A DNA stretch of 64,000 bases from Acidiferrobacteraceae bacterium (lineage in GTDB: Bacteria > Pseudomonadota > Gammaproteobacteria > Acidiferrobacterales > JAJDNE01): positions 21,031 through 85,030 of the forward strand of contig JARRJV010000025.1 of assembly GCA_037388825.1 (NCBI GenBank). The letters run 5' to 3'. Below are positions 6,118 to 56,745 of the stretch, piece after piece. The translations under genes and the position numbers were made by a program. How positions within the stretch are numbered: position 1 is the first letter of the stretch; each line of letters begins with the position of its first letter. Under the pieces are notes generated by a model that saw nothing but the letters and a program-made list of their open reading frames with translations, was not told the origin of the DNA and made no database searches.

Positions 6118-7508
6118 TGCAAAAGCTGATTTCCTGGATTGACGATCGTTTCCCTCTCATCGAGACGTGGGAATATCATCTTTCGAAGTACTACGCCCCG
6201 AAGAACTTCAACGTCTGGTACTACTTCGGCTCCCTGGCAGTCGTGGTGCTGGTGATTCAGATTGTCACCGGCATCTTTCTGACCATGCACTACAAGCCGG
6301 ATACGCATTTGGCCTTCGCATCGGTCGAGTACATCATGCGCGACGTCGACTACGGGCGCGACGTCGACTACGGCTGGCTGATCCGCTACATGCATTCCAC
6401 CGGTGCATCGTTCTTCTTTATTACGGTCTATCTGCACATGTTCCGCGGCCTGATGTACGGTTCCTATCGCGGCCCGCGTGAACTGCTGTGGATCATCGGT
6501 GTGGTGATCTTCATCGCCCTGATGGCCGAGGCCTTCATGGGCTATCTGCTGCCCTGGGGCAATATGTCCTACTGGGGCGCGCAGGTGATCATTTCCCTGT
6601 TCGATGCCATCCCGTATGTCGGCCATGGTCTGTCGGAGTGGATTCGCGGTGACTTCGTGGTTTCCGACGCGACCCTGAACCGCTTCTTCGCCTTCCACGT
6701 GATCGCGGTTCCCCTGGTTCTGATCGTGCTGGTATTCCTGCACCTGGTGGCCCTGCATGCCGTCGGCTCCAACAACCCCGACGGGATCGAGATCAAGAAG
6801 AACAAGGGCGAGGATGGTATTCCGCTGGACGGGATTCCGTTCCACCCGTACTACACGGTCGGCAAGGACCTGTTCGGTGTGGTGGTGTTCCTGATGATCT
6901 ATTCCGCCGTGGTATTCCTGGGACCGGAACTGGGCGGTATCTTTCTGGAGCATGACAACTTCGTTCCGGCAAACATCCTGCAGACCCCGCCGGAGATCAA
7001 ACCGCTGTGGTATTTCACGCCGTTCTACTCGATTTTGCGTGCGACCACTTCGGATCTGAAGCCGATTCTCGGCGCGTTCTTTGGCGTGGTTGGTGCCATA
7101 TCTGCCTATTATTCGAGGGGCAAGATACTTCGGGTTGGTGTGATTGGCGCGATCGTTGCGGTTCTCATCCTCGGTCTGTACGTGCTGGAGGCCAAGGTGT
7201 GGGGCGTGATCCTGATGGGTAGCTCCCTGGTGGTGCTGTTCTTCCTACCGTGGCTGGACCAGTCGCCGGTCAAATCTGTCCGCTACCGCGGGTGGATCTA
7301 CAAGCTGGCGCTGACGGTGTTCGTGATTGCCTTCATCATTCTCGGATATCTCGGCATGAAGACCCCGGCAGGGGTGGACCTGATCTGGTTCCAGAACAAG
7401 ACCTGGGCACAGGTGTTTACGATCATCTATTTCTCGTTTTTCTTCCTGATGCCGTTCTATACCCGATGGGACAAAACCAAGCCGGTACCGGAGAGGGTGA
7501 CCAAATGA
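6114..7508 (+). CDS. petB: cytochrome b of the bc1 complex
   Basis: 464 aa. Cytochrome b motifs are present (WLIRYMHSTGASFFF, PWGNMSYWGAQVI, PEIKPLWYFTPFY). The start overlaps the petA stop. Confidence 0.92.
   Translation: MMQKLISWIDDRFPLIETWEYHLSKYYAPKNFNVWYYFGSLAVVVLVIQIVTGIFLTMHYKPDTHLAFASVEYIMRDVDYGRDVDYGWLIRYMHSTGASFFFITVYLHMFRGLMYGSYRGPRELLWIIGVVIFIALMAEAFMGYLLPWGNMSYWGAQVIISLFDAIPYVGHGLSEWIRGDFVVSDATLNRFFAFHVIAVPLVLIVLVFLHLVALHAVGSNNPDGIEIKKNKGEDGIPLDGIPFHPYYTVGKDLFGVVVFLMIYSAVVFLGPELGGIFLEHDNFVPANILQTPPEIKPLWYFTPFYSILRATTSDLKPILGAFFGVVGAISAYYSRGKILRVGVIGAIVAVLILGLYVLEAKVWGVILMGSSLVVLFFLPWLDQSPVKSVRYRGWIYKLALTVFVIAFIILGYLGMKTPAGVDLIWFQNKTWAQVFTIIYFSFFFLMPFYTRWDKTKPVPERVTK
6339..6374 (+). 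repeat. in-frame 18-bp tandem duplication inside petB (RDVDYG x2)
   Basis: cgcgacgtcgactacggg (6339-6356) is followed immediately by cgcgacgtcgactacggc (6357-6374). Confidence 0.9.
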
Positions 7509-16542: not shown

Positions 16543-17397
16543 ATGTCAAACGAGCGCGGGACCCTTTATCTTGTGGCGACACCCATCGGTAACCTGGGTG
16601 ACATGAGCGCGCGGGCCATCGAAACACTCAAGAAAGTGGACCTGATCGCGGCCGAGGATACACGGCACAGCGCGCCCCTGCTGCGTCATTTCTCCATTGC
16701 CACCACCACCACTTCGTTTCATGAACACAACGAAGCGGAGAAGGTTGGACAGCTCGTCGACCGCCTGCGCGCGGGCGAGGATATCGCCCTGATCAGCGAT
16801 GCCGGGACGCCGCTCGTAAACGACCCCGGCTATCGCCTCGTACGGGCCGCGCGCGACGATGGGCTGCGGGTTGTCGCGGTGCCCGGGCCCTGTGCTGCCA
16901 TCGCCGCACTGTCAGTTTCCGGATTGCCAACCGATGAGTTTGTCTTCGCCGGCTTCCCGCCGCCGCGCCGGGAAGCGCGCCGGCGTTGGTTTCAGGAACG
17001 TGCGAACGAGCGGCGTACCCAGATTTTCTACGAAAGCCCGCATCGGATCGTGGAATCCCTGGAAGACATGGCGGCGGTCTACGGAGGGGATCGGGCGGTG
17101 GCCGTCGCAAGGGAACTGACCAAGCGTTATGAGACTGTTCTCGACGGTCCGCTGGTCGCGGTTGTCGAGCGGGTCCGGGACGATCCCAATCAACAGAAGG
17201 GCGAATTCGTGGTCCTGCTTCGGGGGCGGGAAAAGAGAGAAGACGAGATGCCGGATGAAGCGGTGCGAACCCTGGAGATCCTGGCTTCCGAGTTACCGCC
17301 GCGCCAGGCGGCGGCCCTGGCAAGCCAGATTACGGGGCTGGCAAAGAACCGCCTGTATCGGTGGCTGGTGAACTCCGGCTCCGGGAGCAGCAGCTAG
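16543..17397 (+). CDS. rsmI: 16S rRNA (cytidine1402-2'-O)-methyltransferase
   Basis: 284 aa. GTLYLVATPIGNLGDMS...AEDTR is the RsmI signature. Confidence 0.92.
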   Translation: MSNERGTLYLVATPIGNLGDMSARAIETLKKVDLIAAEDTRHSAPLLRHFSIATTTTSFHEHNEAEKVGQLVDRLRAGEDIALISDAGTPLVNDPGYRLVRAARDDGLRVVAVPGPCAAIAALSVSGLPTDEFVFAGFPPPRREARRRWFQERANERRTQIFYESPHRIVESLEDMAAVYGGDRAVAVARELTKRYETVLDGPLVAVVERVRDDPNQQKGEFVVLLRGREKREDEMPDEAVRTLEILASELPPRQAAALASQITGLAKNRLYRWLVNSGSGSSS

Positions 17398-17466
17398 CCC
17401 GGCTGGCACCAAAAGCCGCGGCTGAATATGCCTGTTACCAAGCACAGGAGGAGGGTTGTGACCGGT

Positions 17467-30840: not shown

Positions 30841-31730
30841 ACGTAGCGGCCAATGTAATGCACGGACAGCTGAAGCGGAACGAACCGATGTCGCGCCATA
30901 CCAGTTGGCGTGTCGGCGGCCCGGCGGATTGTTACTACCATCCCGCGGATCTTCAGGATCTGTCCCGGTTTCTGGGCACGCTGCCCGAGGGCGAGCCCGT
31001 GTACTTCGTCGGCCTGGGCAGCAACCTGCTGGTGCGTGATGGCGGCGTGCGCGGGACGGTAGTCGCGACCTCCGGAGCGCTGGGGGATCTGGAATTGATG
31101 GAGGCCGGTTTGGTGCGCGCCGAGGCGGGTGTCGCCAGCGCCAAGGCCGCCCGATTCTGTGCCCGGCACGATCTGGTTGGTGGGGAATTTCTTGCCGGAA
31201 TTCCCGGGACCATTGGCGGCGCCCTGGCGATGAACGCCGGCGCCTTTGGCGGCGAGACCTGGAACATTGTGGCCGCGGTGGAAACCATCGATGTCCATGG
31301 CCAGATTCGCACGCGTACACCGGACGACTTCACCATTGCCTATCGCTCGGTCCACGGACCGGAAGGTGAGTGGTTTGTCGCCGCCCATTTCCGCTTGCGG
31401 CCGGGCGATGGAAGCCATGCAAAGGCTGAGATCAAGCGCCTGCTTGCGCAGCGGGGCAGCAGTCAGCCGACCCAGACAGCCAACGCCGGTTCCGTTTTCA
31501 AGAATCCTCCGGGCGACCATGCCGCGCGCCTGATCGAGGCCACTGGGCTCAAGGGTATCTGCGAAGGCGAGGCCTGCGTTTCGGACATGCATGCCAACTT
31601 CATCGTCAATACCGGCGGTGCCCGTGCCGCCGATATTGAACGTCTCATCGAACGCGTCCGGCAGGCCGTGCACGAAGCCCACGGCGTCCTGCTGGAACCG
31701 GAGGTACGTATCGTGGGGGAGGCCGAATGA
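30837..31730 (+). CDS. murB: UDP-N-acetylenolpyruvoylglucosamine reductase
   Basis: 297 aa. FAD-binding MurB pattern ([19 protein letters not shown]). Confidence 0.92.
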
Positions 31731-32679
31731 GCGCGCGTGGTCTCGGCAAGGTGGCGGTCCTGATGGGCGGACCCTCGGCGGAACGGGAGGTTTCCCTGCG
31801 CAGCGGCGCCGCCGTACTCGCCGCCCTGCAACGCCGCGGTGTGGATGCCCATGGGATCGACGCCGGTCGCGATGTGCTCAAACAACTTGAGCAGTAAGCA
31901 AAGGTATTCTAACATCAAGGTCTCTTGAATCTGTTGTAGCAAAATACCTGATAAACGATAAACAAGCAGAAAATTGGTGATGTATTACGTGAAAATTATT
32001 AATCCAGTGACTTCACAAAATATCTTACTGAAAAAGTGCATCAGACTAACGGTCAAGATGAAACATTCGAACAGAAACTGTCAGGTGCCTTAATCACGCT
32101 GGGGCCTCTACAGATGACTTTTAATTTTACCGGCAATTTCTTCAAACTCCTCTTTTACTGGGCCTGCCGATGGCGGTAAAACCCAATGCGCAGGGATCCA
32201 GTGTCGGCGTAAGCAGGGTAGACCGGCGCGAAGAACTTGCCACCGCCTGGGAGATGGCGCGCGCCCTGGACCCGGTTGTGCTGGCGGAGAGCTGGATTAC
32301 CGGGAAGGAGCTCCACGCCGCCATTCTTGACAACGAGCCGCTGCCCCTGGTGTGGGTGGAGGCGCCTGGCGGTTTCTATACCTACGACGCGAAGTACAAC
32401 TCCGACGCCACACGCTACCACTGCCCGAGCGGCCTTGACCCGGAGGTCGAGGAGAGGGTTCGCATGCTGGCCCTGCAGAGCTTTCACCTGCTCGGTTGTC
32501 GCGGCTGGGGGCGGGTCGATGTGCTGCTGGACGAGTCATCACACCCGTATGTGCTGGAGGTAAACACCCTGCCGGGTATGACGGACCACAGCCTGGTACC
32601 CATGGCGGCACGGGAAGCGGGCATGGATTTCGATGAACTGGTGATGCGAATTCTGGAGGGCAGCCATGGCGAGCGTTAA
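31727..32679 (+). pseudogene. ddl: D-alanine--D-alanine ligase, disrupted (N-terminal 56 codons and C-terminal ~172 codons, out of frame; central part replaced)
   Basis: The ATG at 31727 (ATGA overlap with murB) gives [56 protein letters not shown], then TAA at 31895. Ddl sequence resumes at about 32161 (GLPMAVKPNAQGSSVGVSRV...LEVNTLPGMTDHSLVPMAAREAGMDF...) in another frame. The ALHGRGGEDG block and the first half of the ATP-grasp central domain are absent. Confidence 0.85.
31895..32160. other. AT-rich (~36% GC) foreign-composition segment replacing the middle of ddl
   Basis: Composition breaks abruptly at both edges. Stops occur in all six frames. The 6-bp inverted termini are CAGTAA (31892-97) and TTACTG (32155-60). 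The content was not recognised. Confidence 0.8.
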
Positions 32680-46517: not shown

Positions 46518-47681
46518 TCAGATGACGGATGCGAGTTTGAAGATGGGCAGGTACATCGCGACCACCATGCCGCCCACAATGATACCGAGAAAGGCCATGA
46601 TGATCGGTTCGAGCAGACTGCTTAGGCCGGCTACGGCGTCGTCGACCTCGGTTTCGTAGATATCGGCTACCTTGCCGAGCATGGCATCCAGTTCACCCGA
46701 TTCCTCGCCAATGGCTACCATTTGCACGACCATATTCGGGAACAGGTTTACCTGGCCCATGGCCGCCTGCAGCTGGGTGCCGGTACTGACCTCGTCCTTG
46801 ATCTGCAGCGTTCCATCATAGTAGACCCGGTTGCCCGCGGCGCCAGCGACGGAATCCAGGGCTTCCACGAGCGGTACACCGGCGGCGAACATCGTTGCAA
46901 GGGTGCGACAGAAGCGCGCGATCGTGGCCTTCTTGATGATCGGTCCAATAATCGGAGCGCGCAGCAACAGGCGATCCATCATATGCTGCATCTTCGTGGA
47001 TCGCCTGTAGGCATAGAAGAATCCGCCAATGGTGCCGAAGATGCTGCCGAAGATCAGGATCGCGTGGTTCGTAAAGGCCTTGGACAGATTGATGACGAAT
47101 ACCGTCAGTGCTGGCAGGTCGGCGCCAAAGTCGGCGAACAGACTTTCAAACTGGGGAATCACGAAGATCAGCAAGATCGCGGAAATAATGAATGCGACCA
47201 CAATGACCGCCGTTGGATAGAACAGCGCGGACTTGATCTTGCTCTTCAGGTTCTCGATCTTTTCCTTGTAGGTCGCGATCTTGTCCAGCAGGGTCTCGAG
47301 AATACCGGCCTGTTCACCGGCTCCCACCAGGCTGCAGTAGAGGGAGTCGAAATAGAGCGGATGCTTGGACAAGGCCTCGGTCAGATTGGTGCCGGATTCG
47401 ATATCCTGCTTGACGCGGATCACAAGATCCGCGAGACCCGAATTTTCCGTTCCCTTGGCTACGATATCGAATGCCTGAACGACCGGTAGACCCGCCTGCA
47501 ACATCGTGGCAAGTTGGCGCGTGAAGACCGCAATGTCCTTTGGTTTGATCTTCTTCTTGGTGTTGAACAGGGACTTCTGGGCAACGCCAGTTCCTTCCAT
47601 CTCTCCCTTGATGGTCTTGCCCTGACGGTCGGTACCTTCAAAGATGAAGATATTTGCTTTCTTGACGGCAGCTTGCGCCAT
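46518..47681 (-). CDS. pilC: type IV pilus inner-membrane platform protein (GspF family)
   Basis: 387 aa with the two GspF repeats. The N-terminal region is about 19 aa shorter than my recollection of P. aeruginosa PilC. Confidence 0.9.
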   Translation of the reverse strand: MAQAAVKKANIFIFEGTDRQGKTIKGEMEGTGVAQKSLFNTKKKIKPKDIAVFTRQLATMLQAGLPVVQAFDIVAKGTENSGLADLVIRVKQDIESGTNLTEALSKHPLYFDSLYCSLVGAGEQAGILETLLDKIATYKEKIENLKSKIKSALFYPTAVIVVAFIISAILLIFVIPQFESLFADFGADLPALTVFVINLSKAFTNHAILIFGSIFGTIGGFFYAYRRSTKMQHMMDRLLLRAPIIGPIIKKATIARFCRTLATMFAAGVPLVEALDSVAGAAGNRVYYDGTLQIKDEVSTGTQLQAAMGQVNLFPNMVVQMVAIGEESGELDAMLGKVADIYETEVDDAVAGLSSLLEPIIMAFLGIIVGGMVVAMYLPIFKLASVI

Positions 47682-49435: not shown

Positions 49436-49555
49436 GGTTGTGGATGAAACTCCCGGTGATCTTTCAGTCGGTGGCATACAACACGACCCGGATACAATTA
49501 TCGTGCCCGAGCCGATTCACTGCTACTCGTATGATAGTAGATGAGATGTTGCGCG

Positions 49556-49581
49556 CAGCCAAACATTTTTGGCTGTTTTTT
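49556..49581 (+). terminator. orphan terminator-like hairpin in the pilB-rubrerythrin intergenic region
   Basis: cagccaaa-catt-tttggctg followed by tttttt on the + strand. No + strand gene lies upstream. Confidence 0.45.
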
Positions 49582-49677
49582 CATGTACCACAACAAGGGG
49601 ACAAAACAGGCTTTCCCGGGGAGATTGTGGGGCTTGATGGATATCAATGCGCCTGTGTGCCCGCTCTCCGAGAATGA

Positions 49678-49706
49678 TTGACACCGGAAAGGCAAAAAAT
49701 TAGAAT
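49678..49706 (+). promoter_or_regulatory. sigma70 promoter of the rubrerythrin operon
   Basis: TTGACA (49678-83), a 17-nt spacer, then TAGAAT (49701-06). The AGGAG RBS precedes the ATG at 49734. Confidence 0.65.
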
Positions 49707-49733
49707 GGTTCTAAATCGGTTAGGAGCACCCTC

Positions 49734-54578: not shown

Positions 54579-54657
54579 TTCATGGCGACCCGGAAGAAAA
54601 AAGCGGCGAAGAAATCCGCGAAGAAAAAGGCCGCGCGCAAGACTGATCGTCTATGCC

Positions 54658-56745
54658 ATGTCCGAACTGGGCCTGAACGCCGCCGCCAAGTACAAGAAGT
54701 CAGCGCGCACCGTAGGTGACGTATTGGGCAAGTTCCATCCCCATGGTGATACGGCCTGCTACGAGGCCATGGTGCTCATGGCCCAGCCCTTCAGCTATCG
54801 CTATCCACTGGTGGACGGACAGGGCAACTGGGGATCGCTGGACGATCCAAAGTCGTTTGCCGCCATGCGCTATACCGAGGCTCGGCTAGCCCGTTATTCA
54901 CAGGTCCTGTTGTCGGAACTGGGGCAGGGGACGGCGGATTGGGTGCCCAACTTCGATGGTACGCTGGAAGAACCCCGCGTATTGCCCGCACGCCTGCCCA
55001 ACGTGCTGCTGAACGGAACCACCGGCATCGCTGTGGGTATGGCTACCGACATTCCGCCGCACAATCTGCGCGAGGTCGGGGCCGCCTGCGTACAGCTGCT
55101 GGAGAAGCCGTCCAGCAGCATTGCCGATCTGTGCAAACACATTCAGGGACCGGACTTCCCTACCGATGCGGAAATCATCACGCCGCAACGCGAGATCCGG
55201 GAGATTTACGAGAGCGGCAATGGCACGGTTCGCATGCGTGCGCACTGGCGCCAGGAGGAGGGCGAAATCGTGGTTGACGCCCTGCCGTACCAGGTCTCCA
55301 GTGGCAAGATTCTGGAACAGATCGCCGCCCAGATGCAGGCCAAGAAACTGCCCATGGTTGAAGACCTGCGCGACGAATCGGACCAGGAGCATCCGGTCCG
55401 TCTCGTTATCGTTCCCCGCTCGTCCCGGGTCGATGCCCAGCAGATGATGTCCCATCTCTTCGCCACCACGGATCTCGAGCGCAACTATCGCGTCAATCTG
55501 AACATCATTGATCTGACCGGTCGCCCGCGGGTGTACAACCTGCGTGATTTGCTCCGCGACTGGATCGATTACCGGCTCGAGACCGTACGAAGGCGCCTGC
55601 AGTATCGCTTCGACCGCGTCGTCGCGCGATTGCATGTCCTGGAAGGCCTGATGCTGGCCTACCTGAACCTGGACGAGGTGATTCGCATCATTCGTACCGA
55701 GGATGAGCCAAAACCGAAACTGATCAAGCGATTCAAGCTCACGGACATCCAGGCGGAAGCGATCCTGGAAACGCGGTTGCGGCACCTGGCCAAACTCGAG
55801 GAAATGAAGATCCGCGGCGAGCAGGAAGAGTTGACAGTAGAACGGGACAGTCTGGACAAGATTCTCAAGTCCAAAACGCGCCTCAGAACGCTGGTGAAAA
55901 ACGAAATCAAGGACGATATGCATGAGTTTGGCGACGAACAACGCTCGCCTATCGTCGAGCGCGAAGCGGCACAGGCCATCGATCAGGCATCGTTGTTGCC
56001 CACGGAACCGATTACCGTTGTTCTTTCACAAAAGGGTTTCGTGCGTGCGGCACGCGGGCACGAGATTGACCCTCGTTCCCTGTCCTACCGTTCCGGGGAC
56101 GAATATCTGCACCACGCCCGCGGGCGAAGCAATCAACTGGCAATCTTCATCGATTCGACCGGCCGTGCGTATTGCCAGCCGGCACACAAACTGCCTTCGG
56201 CCCGGGGGCAGGGAGATCCGGTGGCGAGCTACTTCAATCCGCCTCCGGGCGCGACCTTCGCCGGTGTAATCATGGGGCAGCCGGACGACCTGTATCTACT
56301 CTCAACGGATTCCGGCTACGGCTTTGTCGCCCGTCTGGAAGACCTGCTGACCCGGACCCGCAACGGCAAGGCGGTCCTGAAGGTGCCCAAGGGTGCACGC
56401 GTTCTGCCACCGCAAAGGGTCATGAGCCATGAAGAAGACTGGGTCGCGGCAGTGACCAATACCGGGCGCTTGTTGACCTTCATGATCGGTGAGCTGCCGG
56501 CCATGGCCCGCGGCAAGGGAATCAAGATCATCAACGTCCCGACCAAGAAAGCCGCGGCACGGGAAGAGTTCGTCGTTTCCGTTTGTGTGTTTCCGGAGGA
56601 CAAGGGATTGACGGTCTATGCCGGACAGAAGAAGCGGGTCCTTACGGTAGACGATCTGGATCAGTTCATCGGCGAGCGGGGCCTGCGTGGCAGCAAACTG
56701 CCCAAGGGCTACCAGAAGGTTGAGCGGATGGAGGTCACGGAATAG
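54658..56745 (+). CDS. parC: DNA topoisomerase IV subunit A, apparently 5'-truncated (conserved N-terminal ~35-50 aa missing)
   Basis: The ORF begins at [31 protein letters not shown].... This aligns to about residue 49 of E. coli ParC and about residue 55 of P. aeruginosa ParC as I recall them. The active-site AAMRYTE is present. Only 79 nt separate it from the parE stop. Confidence 0.8.

Follow-up and report, generated by a model that had tools for sequence, protein, structure and literature searches.

The ddl locus and its AT-rich patch

The window, i.e. the whole 64-kb stretch of DNA that was analysed, carries on its + strand a dcw cluster comprising mraZ, rsmH, ftsL, ftsI, murE, murF, mraY, murD, ftsW, murG, murC, murB, ddl, ftsQ, ftsA, ftsZ and lpxC, in which ddl runs from 31727 to 32679. 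When analysing the base composition of the window (60.7% GC) a single sharply AT-rich segment appeared, situated at 31892–32160 with 36.4% GC, as a previous sequence-only reading of this DNA had described. It is the only place in the 64 kb where the GC content over 100 nt falls below 0.40 (minimum 0.29, i.e. 29%).

Alignment by BLAST with intact copies of ddl from the same population (see below) divided the gene into three parts. The native 5' part (31727–31894, + strand, codons 1–56) is 100% identical to residues 1–56 of the intact 306-aa Ddl in the population contigs, the native 3' part (32158–32679, + strand, codons 134–306 and the stop codon) is 100% identical to residues 134–306, and between them lies a foreign patch of 263 nt (31895–32157, 35.7% GC). 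The host sequence can be followed up to ...GAGCAG (31894) and is found again from CTGGGCC... (32158). The patch stands in place of 231 nt of ddl (63% GC, codons 57–133), and the earlier observation that ddl codons are missing and not merely interrupted could be confirmed, 77 codons being gone. The motifs CAGTAA (31892–31897), TTACTG (32155–32160) and CTTACTG (32024–32030) are all situated where they had been reported. The proposal that the first two form inverted termini of the segment was not borne out, because the alignment with intact copies makes CAG (31892–31894) and CTG (32158–32160) native ddl; the termini are thus half host sequence, the true limits are 31895–32157 and the complementary patch ends consist of TAA/TTA only.

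The patch supplies an in-frame TAA directly after codon 56 of ddl, 77 codons are removed and the 3' part, where an ATG at 32170 starts a 169-aa ORF, lies in another frame than the 5' part, so that this sequence has no working ddl. Local alignment of the patch with the replaced ddl segment revealed no similarity, the scores being at shuffle level, so that the patch can be neither a diverged copy of that segment nor a version of it re-coded with a high AT content. An apparent extension of Ddl into the patch seen with tblastn was gone when run without composition adjustment.

Intact ddl in the same population

Contigs of the same population were found by exact-sequence look-up of FtsQ, MurB, MurE, an M23 peptidase, ParE and a DsbH-like protein, resulting in a set from nine JGI metagenomes and four Logan run assemblies with 99.7–100% identity to the window or its flanks. 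The native 231-nt segment and an intact 306-aa ddl are present in all 13 stretches spanning the site that were fetched, the segment being identical in each of them, and the breakpoints 31894/31895 and 32157/32158 agree against all intact copies compared (BLAST, 10 population contigs). Exact-product look-up of the two truncated Ddl products, of 56 aa and 169 aa, showed neither of them on record in any public assembly. As judged by these searches, the patch occurs in this assembly alone among those covered.

Among named relatives, those closest to the host Ddl are found in Acidiferrobacterales and other gammaproteobacterial MAGs, with about 58–62% identity, and all relatives listed are full length. 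The predicted host, its taxonomy being taken from these named Ddl relatives, is an uncultured gammaproteobacterium with 61% GC.

Origin of the patch

A search with the six-frame peptides of the patch against 5.8 billion proteins revealed a single match, P0001 (E 2.5e-6, 82% identity over 34 residues), which is a 232-aa protein encoded on a 1.27-kb Logan contig (L012). At the DNA level the 208 nt between 31897 and 32104 are 85% identical to L012, 82% to L013 and 80% to L015, the two latter being the corresponding locus of two Nitrosomonadaceae MAGs at chromosome level (OZ252054.1 and OY760140.1), and the GC content of these donor relatives is 37–46%. The homologue search that had been suggested for the frame-hopping peptides was thereby successful. 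The sequence-only reading had named a clear hit to a gene of an unrelated organism as the sign of a chimeric assembly, and such a hit, to a Nitrosomonadaceae-like gene junction, is what was found.

Two adjacent genes are represented in the patch. Of the first, gene A, the last 27 codons and a TGA stop remain (31897–31980, + strand; SKGILTSRSLESVVAKYLINDKQAENW), aligning with the gene A C-termini in L012, L013 and L015 (e.g. SKGIPSSVSLESVVAKYLANEDRAENW), and in full length it encodes a 247-aa protein with an NDK domain (Pfam PF00334, E 4.8e-32) followed by a C-terminal extension. Of the second, gene B, which is the uncharacterised 232-aa gene matched through P0001, about the first 42 codons remain (31980–32104, + strand). 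Its ATG at 31980 overlaps the stop codon of gene A, an overlap that is kept in L012, and its protein (232–250 aa) gave no match in Pfam, NCBIfam or PADLOC. Gene B is frameshifted in the patch by one missing A at 32001–32002, where the sequence is ATTAATCC vs ATTAAATCC in all three relatives, and this missing A causes the frame hop between a 37-codon ORF and the stretch SSDFTKYL...; the corrected translation is MYYVKIIKSSDFTKYLTEKVHQTNGQDETFEQKLSGALITLG, compared to MHRVKIIKSSEFTKYLTEKVHQSNDLDETFEQKLSSALITMG in P0001.

The protein-like stretches pointed out beforehand could be accounted for in part. Peptide 1 (SKGIL...AENW, ending in a stop), peptide 3 (SSDFTKYLTEKVHQ...) and the start of the 37-codon ORF are gene remnants while TINKQKIGDVLRENY is out of frame, and two of the peptide starts had been placed 2–4 nt off, TINKQ in fact starting at 31955 and SSDF at 32003. 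The idea of a decayed fragment of a low-GC gene was correct once refined, the fragment coming from two adjacent genes that are barely decayed (one missing A and substitutions biased to the third position). The differences between the patch and its relatives are distributed as 8, 6 and 17 over the first, second and third codon positions, and this third-position bias argues that the genes were functional while the donor lineage evolved, and that the fragment is natural DNA.

The last 53 nt of the patch (32105–32157) may either continue gene B or be unrelated filler. Alignment with MAFFT sets TTTAATTTTACC opposite TTTAACTTTACC of L012, and the possible in-register match FNFT / TTTAATTTTACC after a gap of 27 nt is not significant. 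When this tail was compared with the loci of the donor relatives, with the ddl segment that was replaced and with the remainder of the window, no significant similarity appeared, and an origin in the neighbourhood of the donor locus or elsewhere in the window thus found no support.

By these alignments at least the first 208 nt of the patch are shown to be a piece of another bacterium's chromosome with an overlapping stop/start gene junction, and the putative donor is a low-GC, Nitrosomonadaceae-like bacterium unrelated to the host. The donor sequence itself was absent from every collection searched. The patch is very probably a foreign gene-junction fragment without any function of its own.

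The module of an NDK-domain protein and a protein of about 232 aa directly 3' of it is kept in two Nitrosomonadaceae MAGs and in one Anaerolineae MAG (52% identity), and its coordinates are 5250–6690 in L013, 5250–6372 in L015, 793–2325 in L014 and 1–1058 in L012. The C-terminal extension of the NDK-domain protein comprises about 80 aa, the second protein is almost missing from the collection of 5.8 billion proteins, and the second gene of L015 is truncated to 144 aa.

Other differences between the window and the population

When comparing the window over its whole length with the population contigs six structural differences appeared, all private to the window, i.e. the patch and five others. 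In parC (+ strand, native start at about 54582) a frameshifting deletion of 185 nt is located at 54645/54646 when compared to L024–L026. The frame shifts at codon 22 and the conserved N-terminus of ParC is lost, a 695-aa ORF restarting at 54658, and the deletion junction holds no microhomology. This is a second lesion of a lethal type that is private to the contig. In the pilC/T2SSF gene (46518–47681, - strand) an in-frame deletion of 57 nt at about 47577 removes 19 residues (INSHLRRQGIKPKKVRKKP) compared to L016, L018, L024 and L025. The resulting products, PilC of 387 aa and ParC of 695 aa, are not on record according to exact-product look-up.

The three remaining differences are smaller. 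Upstream of pilB, in the intergenic region 49459–49720, a deletion of 38 nt (at 49720) follows a cluster of SNPs when compared to three population contigs; the 21 SNPs lie within 240 nt, giving a divergence of ~9% vs ~0.05% elsewhere, and the region resembles a divergent allele or an import by recombination. Downstream of rsmI (16543–17397), at 17420, 23 nt (GCAAAAAAAAGCCCCGTTTCCGG) that are present in L020 and L021 are missing, and in these two contigs they form a terminator-like hairpin with a T/A run. The cytochrome b gene contains a perfect tandem duplication of 18 nt (6338–6373, GCGCGACGTCGACTACGG twice), which is in frame, adds 6 aa and is absent from L027; just upstream of it three SNPs are found in 35 nt. 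Taken over the window, the deletion junctions show a microhomology of 0–2 nt.

Coding repeats rich in lysine and alanine (AAGAAGGCNGCGAAGAAA...) are situated at 54582–54645, 1120–1152 and 2081–2113. One of them encodes a basic N-terminal tail on ParC, which the ParC of E. coli is not known to have.

A probable chimeric join or a possible recombination event

The patch is probably, though with considerable room for doubt, a chimeric or amplification/assembly artefact that was joined outside the living population. The join could have been made by template switching during whole-genome amplification, by a chimeric molecule, or by an error in assembly, gap closing or editing. An artefact is favoured because the patch is seen in this assembly only, because an essential gene is killed and because a second lethal-type lesion, in parC, lies in the same 64 kb. 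The gene ddl is a cell-wall gene and normally essential, and a living clone is difficult to reconcile with a contig on which two lethal-type lesions lie 23 kb apart.

The patch is in several respects similar to the chimeric joins between genomes known from metagenome, single-cell and amplified-DNA assemblies: DNA of two unrelated organisms meets at junctions where homology is slight or absent, an essential gene is disrupted by a join that is private to one assembly, and other lesions, namely small deletions and a short tandem duplication with 0–2 nt of microhomology, are found alongside. Template-switch chimeras of multiple displacement amplification were reportedly described by Lasken and Stockwell in 2007. 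Amplification chimeras typically have single junctions and are often inverted; unlike these, the patch lies between collinear flanks, which takes two switches and would be rare for any artefact. An artefact is further opposed by the shortness of the shared sequence, since a chimera of a de Bruijn graph needs a long shared k-mer while at most 3 nt (CAG and CTG) can be shared per junction, so that a simple error in a short-read graph is no easy fit. It is also opposed by the absence of the donor from the JGI metagenome collection, as the matching contigs suggest that this collection includes the samples of the project. The SNPs that separate the window from the population look natural, 25 being synonymous and 14 non-synonymous, which rules out that they are simulated noise, and two of the other indels lie in SNP clusters, like real divergent alleles; the contig is therefore not generally corrupt.

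The left junction bears on both an artefact and a recombination event. The host sequence AACAACTTGAGCA there resembles AACAAC-TGAGCA in L013 and L015 (P ~0.002, the comparison being made with relatives of the donor and not with the donor itself), and in these relatives the motif sits just upstream of where the homology to the patch begins. Such an extended microhomology, a candidate with one gap, would fit a molecular template switch, be it in the tube or in the cell. An extra GTAAGCA at the junction means that the crossover within the microhomology is not a clean one.

A genuine event in vivo, in which a cell of the population took up DNA of a Nitrosomonadaceae-like neighbour and the assembly holds the dead ddl allele of a rare, dying or polyploid cell, is possible but rather unlikely. 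Such an event is favoured by the extended and gapped microhomology between the host flank and the donor relatives, found exactly at the left junction, and by the up to 3 nt that could be shared at each junction. The window encodes the type IV pilus genes pilB, pilC and pilD, required for DNA uptake, its SNPs are in places clustered in short tracts, as is typical of imports by recombination, and the donor fragment is natural DNA whose lineage is missing from the collections searched. These points are to be weighed against the loss of a normally essential gene by an allele found in none of the 13 other copies sampled, against the second lethal-type lesion in parC on the same contig, and against the left crossover with its extra GTAAGCA. 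For the more specific proposal, that 263 bp of environmental DNA entered ddl by double illegitimate recombination at (extended) microhomologies and that the dead ddl and parC alleles were tolerated or merely sampled from a polyploid or dying cell, we see little likelihood.

The closest known counterpart of such an event is SPDIR, a form of double illegitimate recombination for which Acinetobacter baylyi provides a documented case with foreign DNA. In this organism the patches measure ~3–100 bp and arise at frequencies of ~1e-12 or lower (<1e-12 in the wild type) (bioRxiv 10.1101/2023.11.22.568220). SPDIR is so far known only from laboratory selection. As in SPDIR, a stretch of the chromosome is swapped for fully heterologous DNA, which may come from outside the genome, of similar length (263 for 231 nt), with a candidate one-gap extended microhomology at the left junction. 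Unlike in SPDIR, the patch of 263 bp is beyond the documented ~3–100 bp, its junction shows no clean crossover, and it knocks out an essential gene with no selective benefit; both the size and the low frequency speak against an event of this kind here.

The patch can also be compared to remnants of horizontally acquired genes, with which it shares recognisable pieces of two foreign genes, a frameshift and a foreign composition. Unlike such remnants it is situated neither in an island nor at an intergenic site but as a precise swap for the middle of a core gene, and it is not common to other members of the population.

Searches for a mobile element, an RNA or a small gene

Two further readings of the patch were considered that would give it a role of its own, and both are highly improbable. 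The first is a MITE-like non-autonomous transposable element inserted in ddl with CAGTAA/TTACTG as inverted repeats, one of the possibilities raised by the sequence-only reading. With MITEs the patch shares its small size (~260 nt), its AT-richness, a lack of coding capacity in its present state and a position within a gene, and there is a complementary pair of 6 nt at the boundaries drawn earlier together with the internal complement of 7 nt. However, half of each 6-nt "terminus" consists of native ddl bases, leaving TAA/TTA only, and a repeat search detected no inverted pair at the two patch ends, so that true terminal inverted repeats are lacking. No target-site duplication was found at the junctions, where instead 231 nt of the target were deleted. 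In the donor relatives the internal CTTACTG lies in a conserved stretch of coding sequence (Y-L-T-E), and the interior as a whole is collinear with an ordinary gene junction of other genomes. Further copies of the unit, the sign that was to be looked for, did not turn up: there is no second copy within the 64-kb window, and exact 24–30-mers from three parts of the patch were found in none of the metagenome, genome and viral collections. When plasmids, phages and E. coli genomes were searched with the patch by blastn (11-base words), a chance match of 30 nt was all that appeared, and tblastn with the forward peptides joined together yielded only noise (E~7) in plasmids and phages. The alignment of the junctions already refutes a MITE-like element.

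The second is an inserted cassette with a gene for a small RNA or a small protein, the candidates being the 37-codon ATG ORF (31980–32093) and a reverse-strand 30-codon TTG ORF preceded by AAGAGGAG. Both ORFs are present, as had been noted, and AAGAGGAG is similar to a Shine-Dalgarno sequence. It is situated 1 nt from the TTG, too near to act as a ribosome binding site, and the 37-codon ORF is the frameshifted start of gene B, the frame used in the relatives being that of gene B; its 37-aa product is not on record according to exact-product look-up. The peptides of the patch gave no match in Pfam. The open stretches, previously regarded as unusually long, turned out to be of the length expected by chance, the longest stop-free run in six frames being 51 codons compared to a shuffle mean of 49.7 (n=5000, 41% at least as long), and the 35 stop codons compare with 36.5 +/- 4.2 expected. 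An ncRNA locus, also suggested earlier, found no support: Rfam showed no match inside 31895–32157 at E up to 10, and no intron models, folding of the patch compared to shuffles gave z-scores of +0.55 (+ strand) and +1.76 (- strand), i.e. no extra stability, a scan of the patch for promoters and terminators revealed none, and ARAGORN detected no tRNA or tmRNA in it. There is thus next to no likelihood that the patch carries such a gene.

A group I/II intron or an intein was rejected, in agreement with the earlier exclusion, as removal of the patch does not restore ddl but leaves it without codons 57–133 and out of frame.

What the patch means for the host and its assembly

As a candidate biological feature the segment is not real, and no new mobile element, RNA or gene is found here. 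The patch is inert foreign DNA, neither a mobile element nor an RNA gene nor a gene, and it would appear to do nothing. A stretch of odd base composition with frame-hopping protein-like segments can be resolved by a six-frame search of metagenome proteins when nucleotide searches fail.

As at least two essential genes of the contig, ddl and parC, have lesions that no other assembly of the population shows, conclusions about pseudogenes or gene loss drawn from it are untrustworthy without checks at the read level, and gene calls from the contig likewise need such checks before they are trusted. If the patch were nevertheless real, it would be a rare natural substitution by heterologous DNA without homology, and if it had arisen by double illegitimate recombination, it would provide an environmental case of the long-patch heterologous substitution that is so far known only from laboratory selections.
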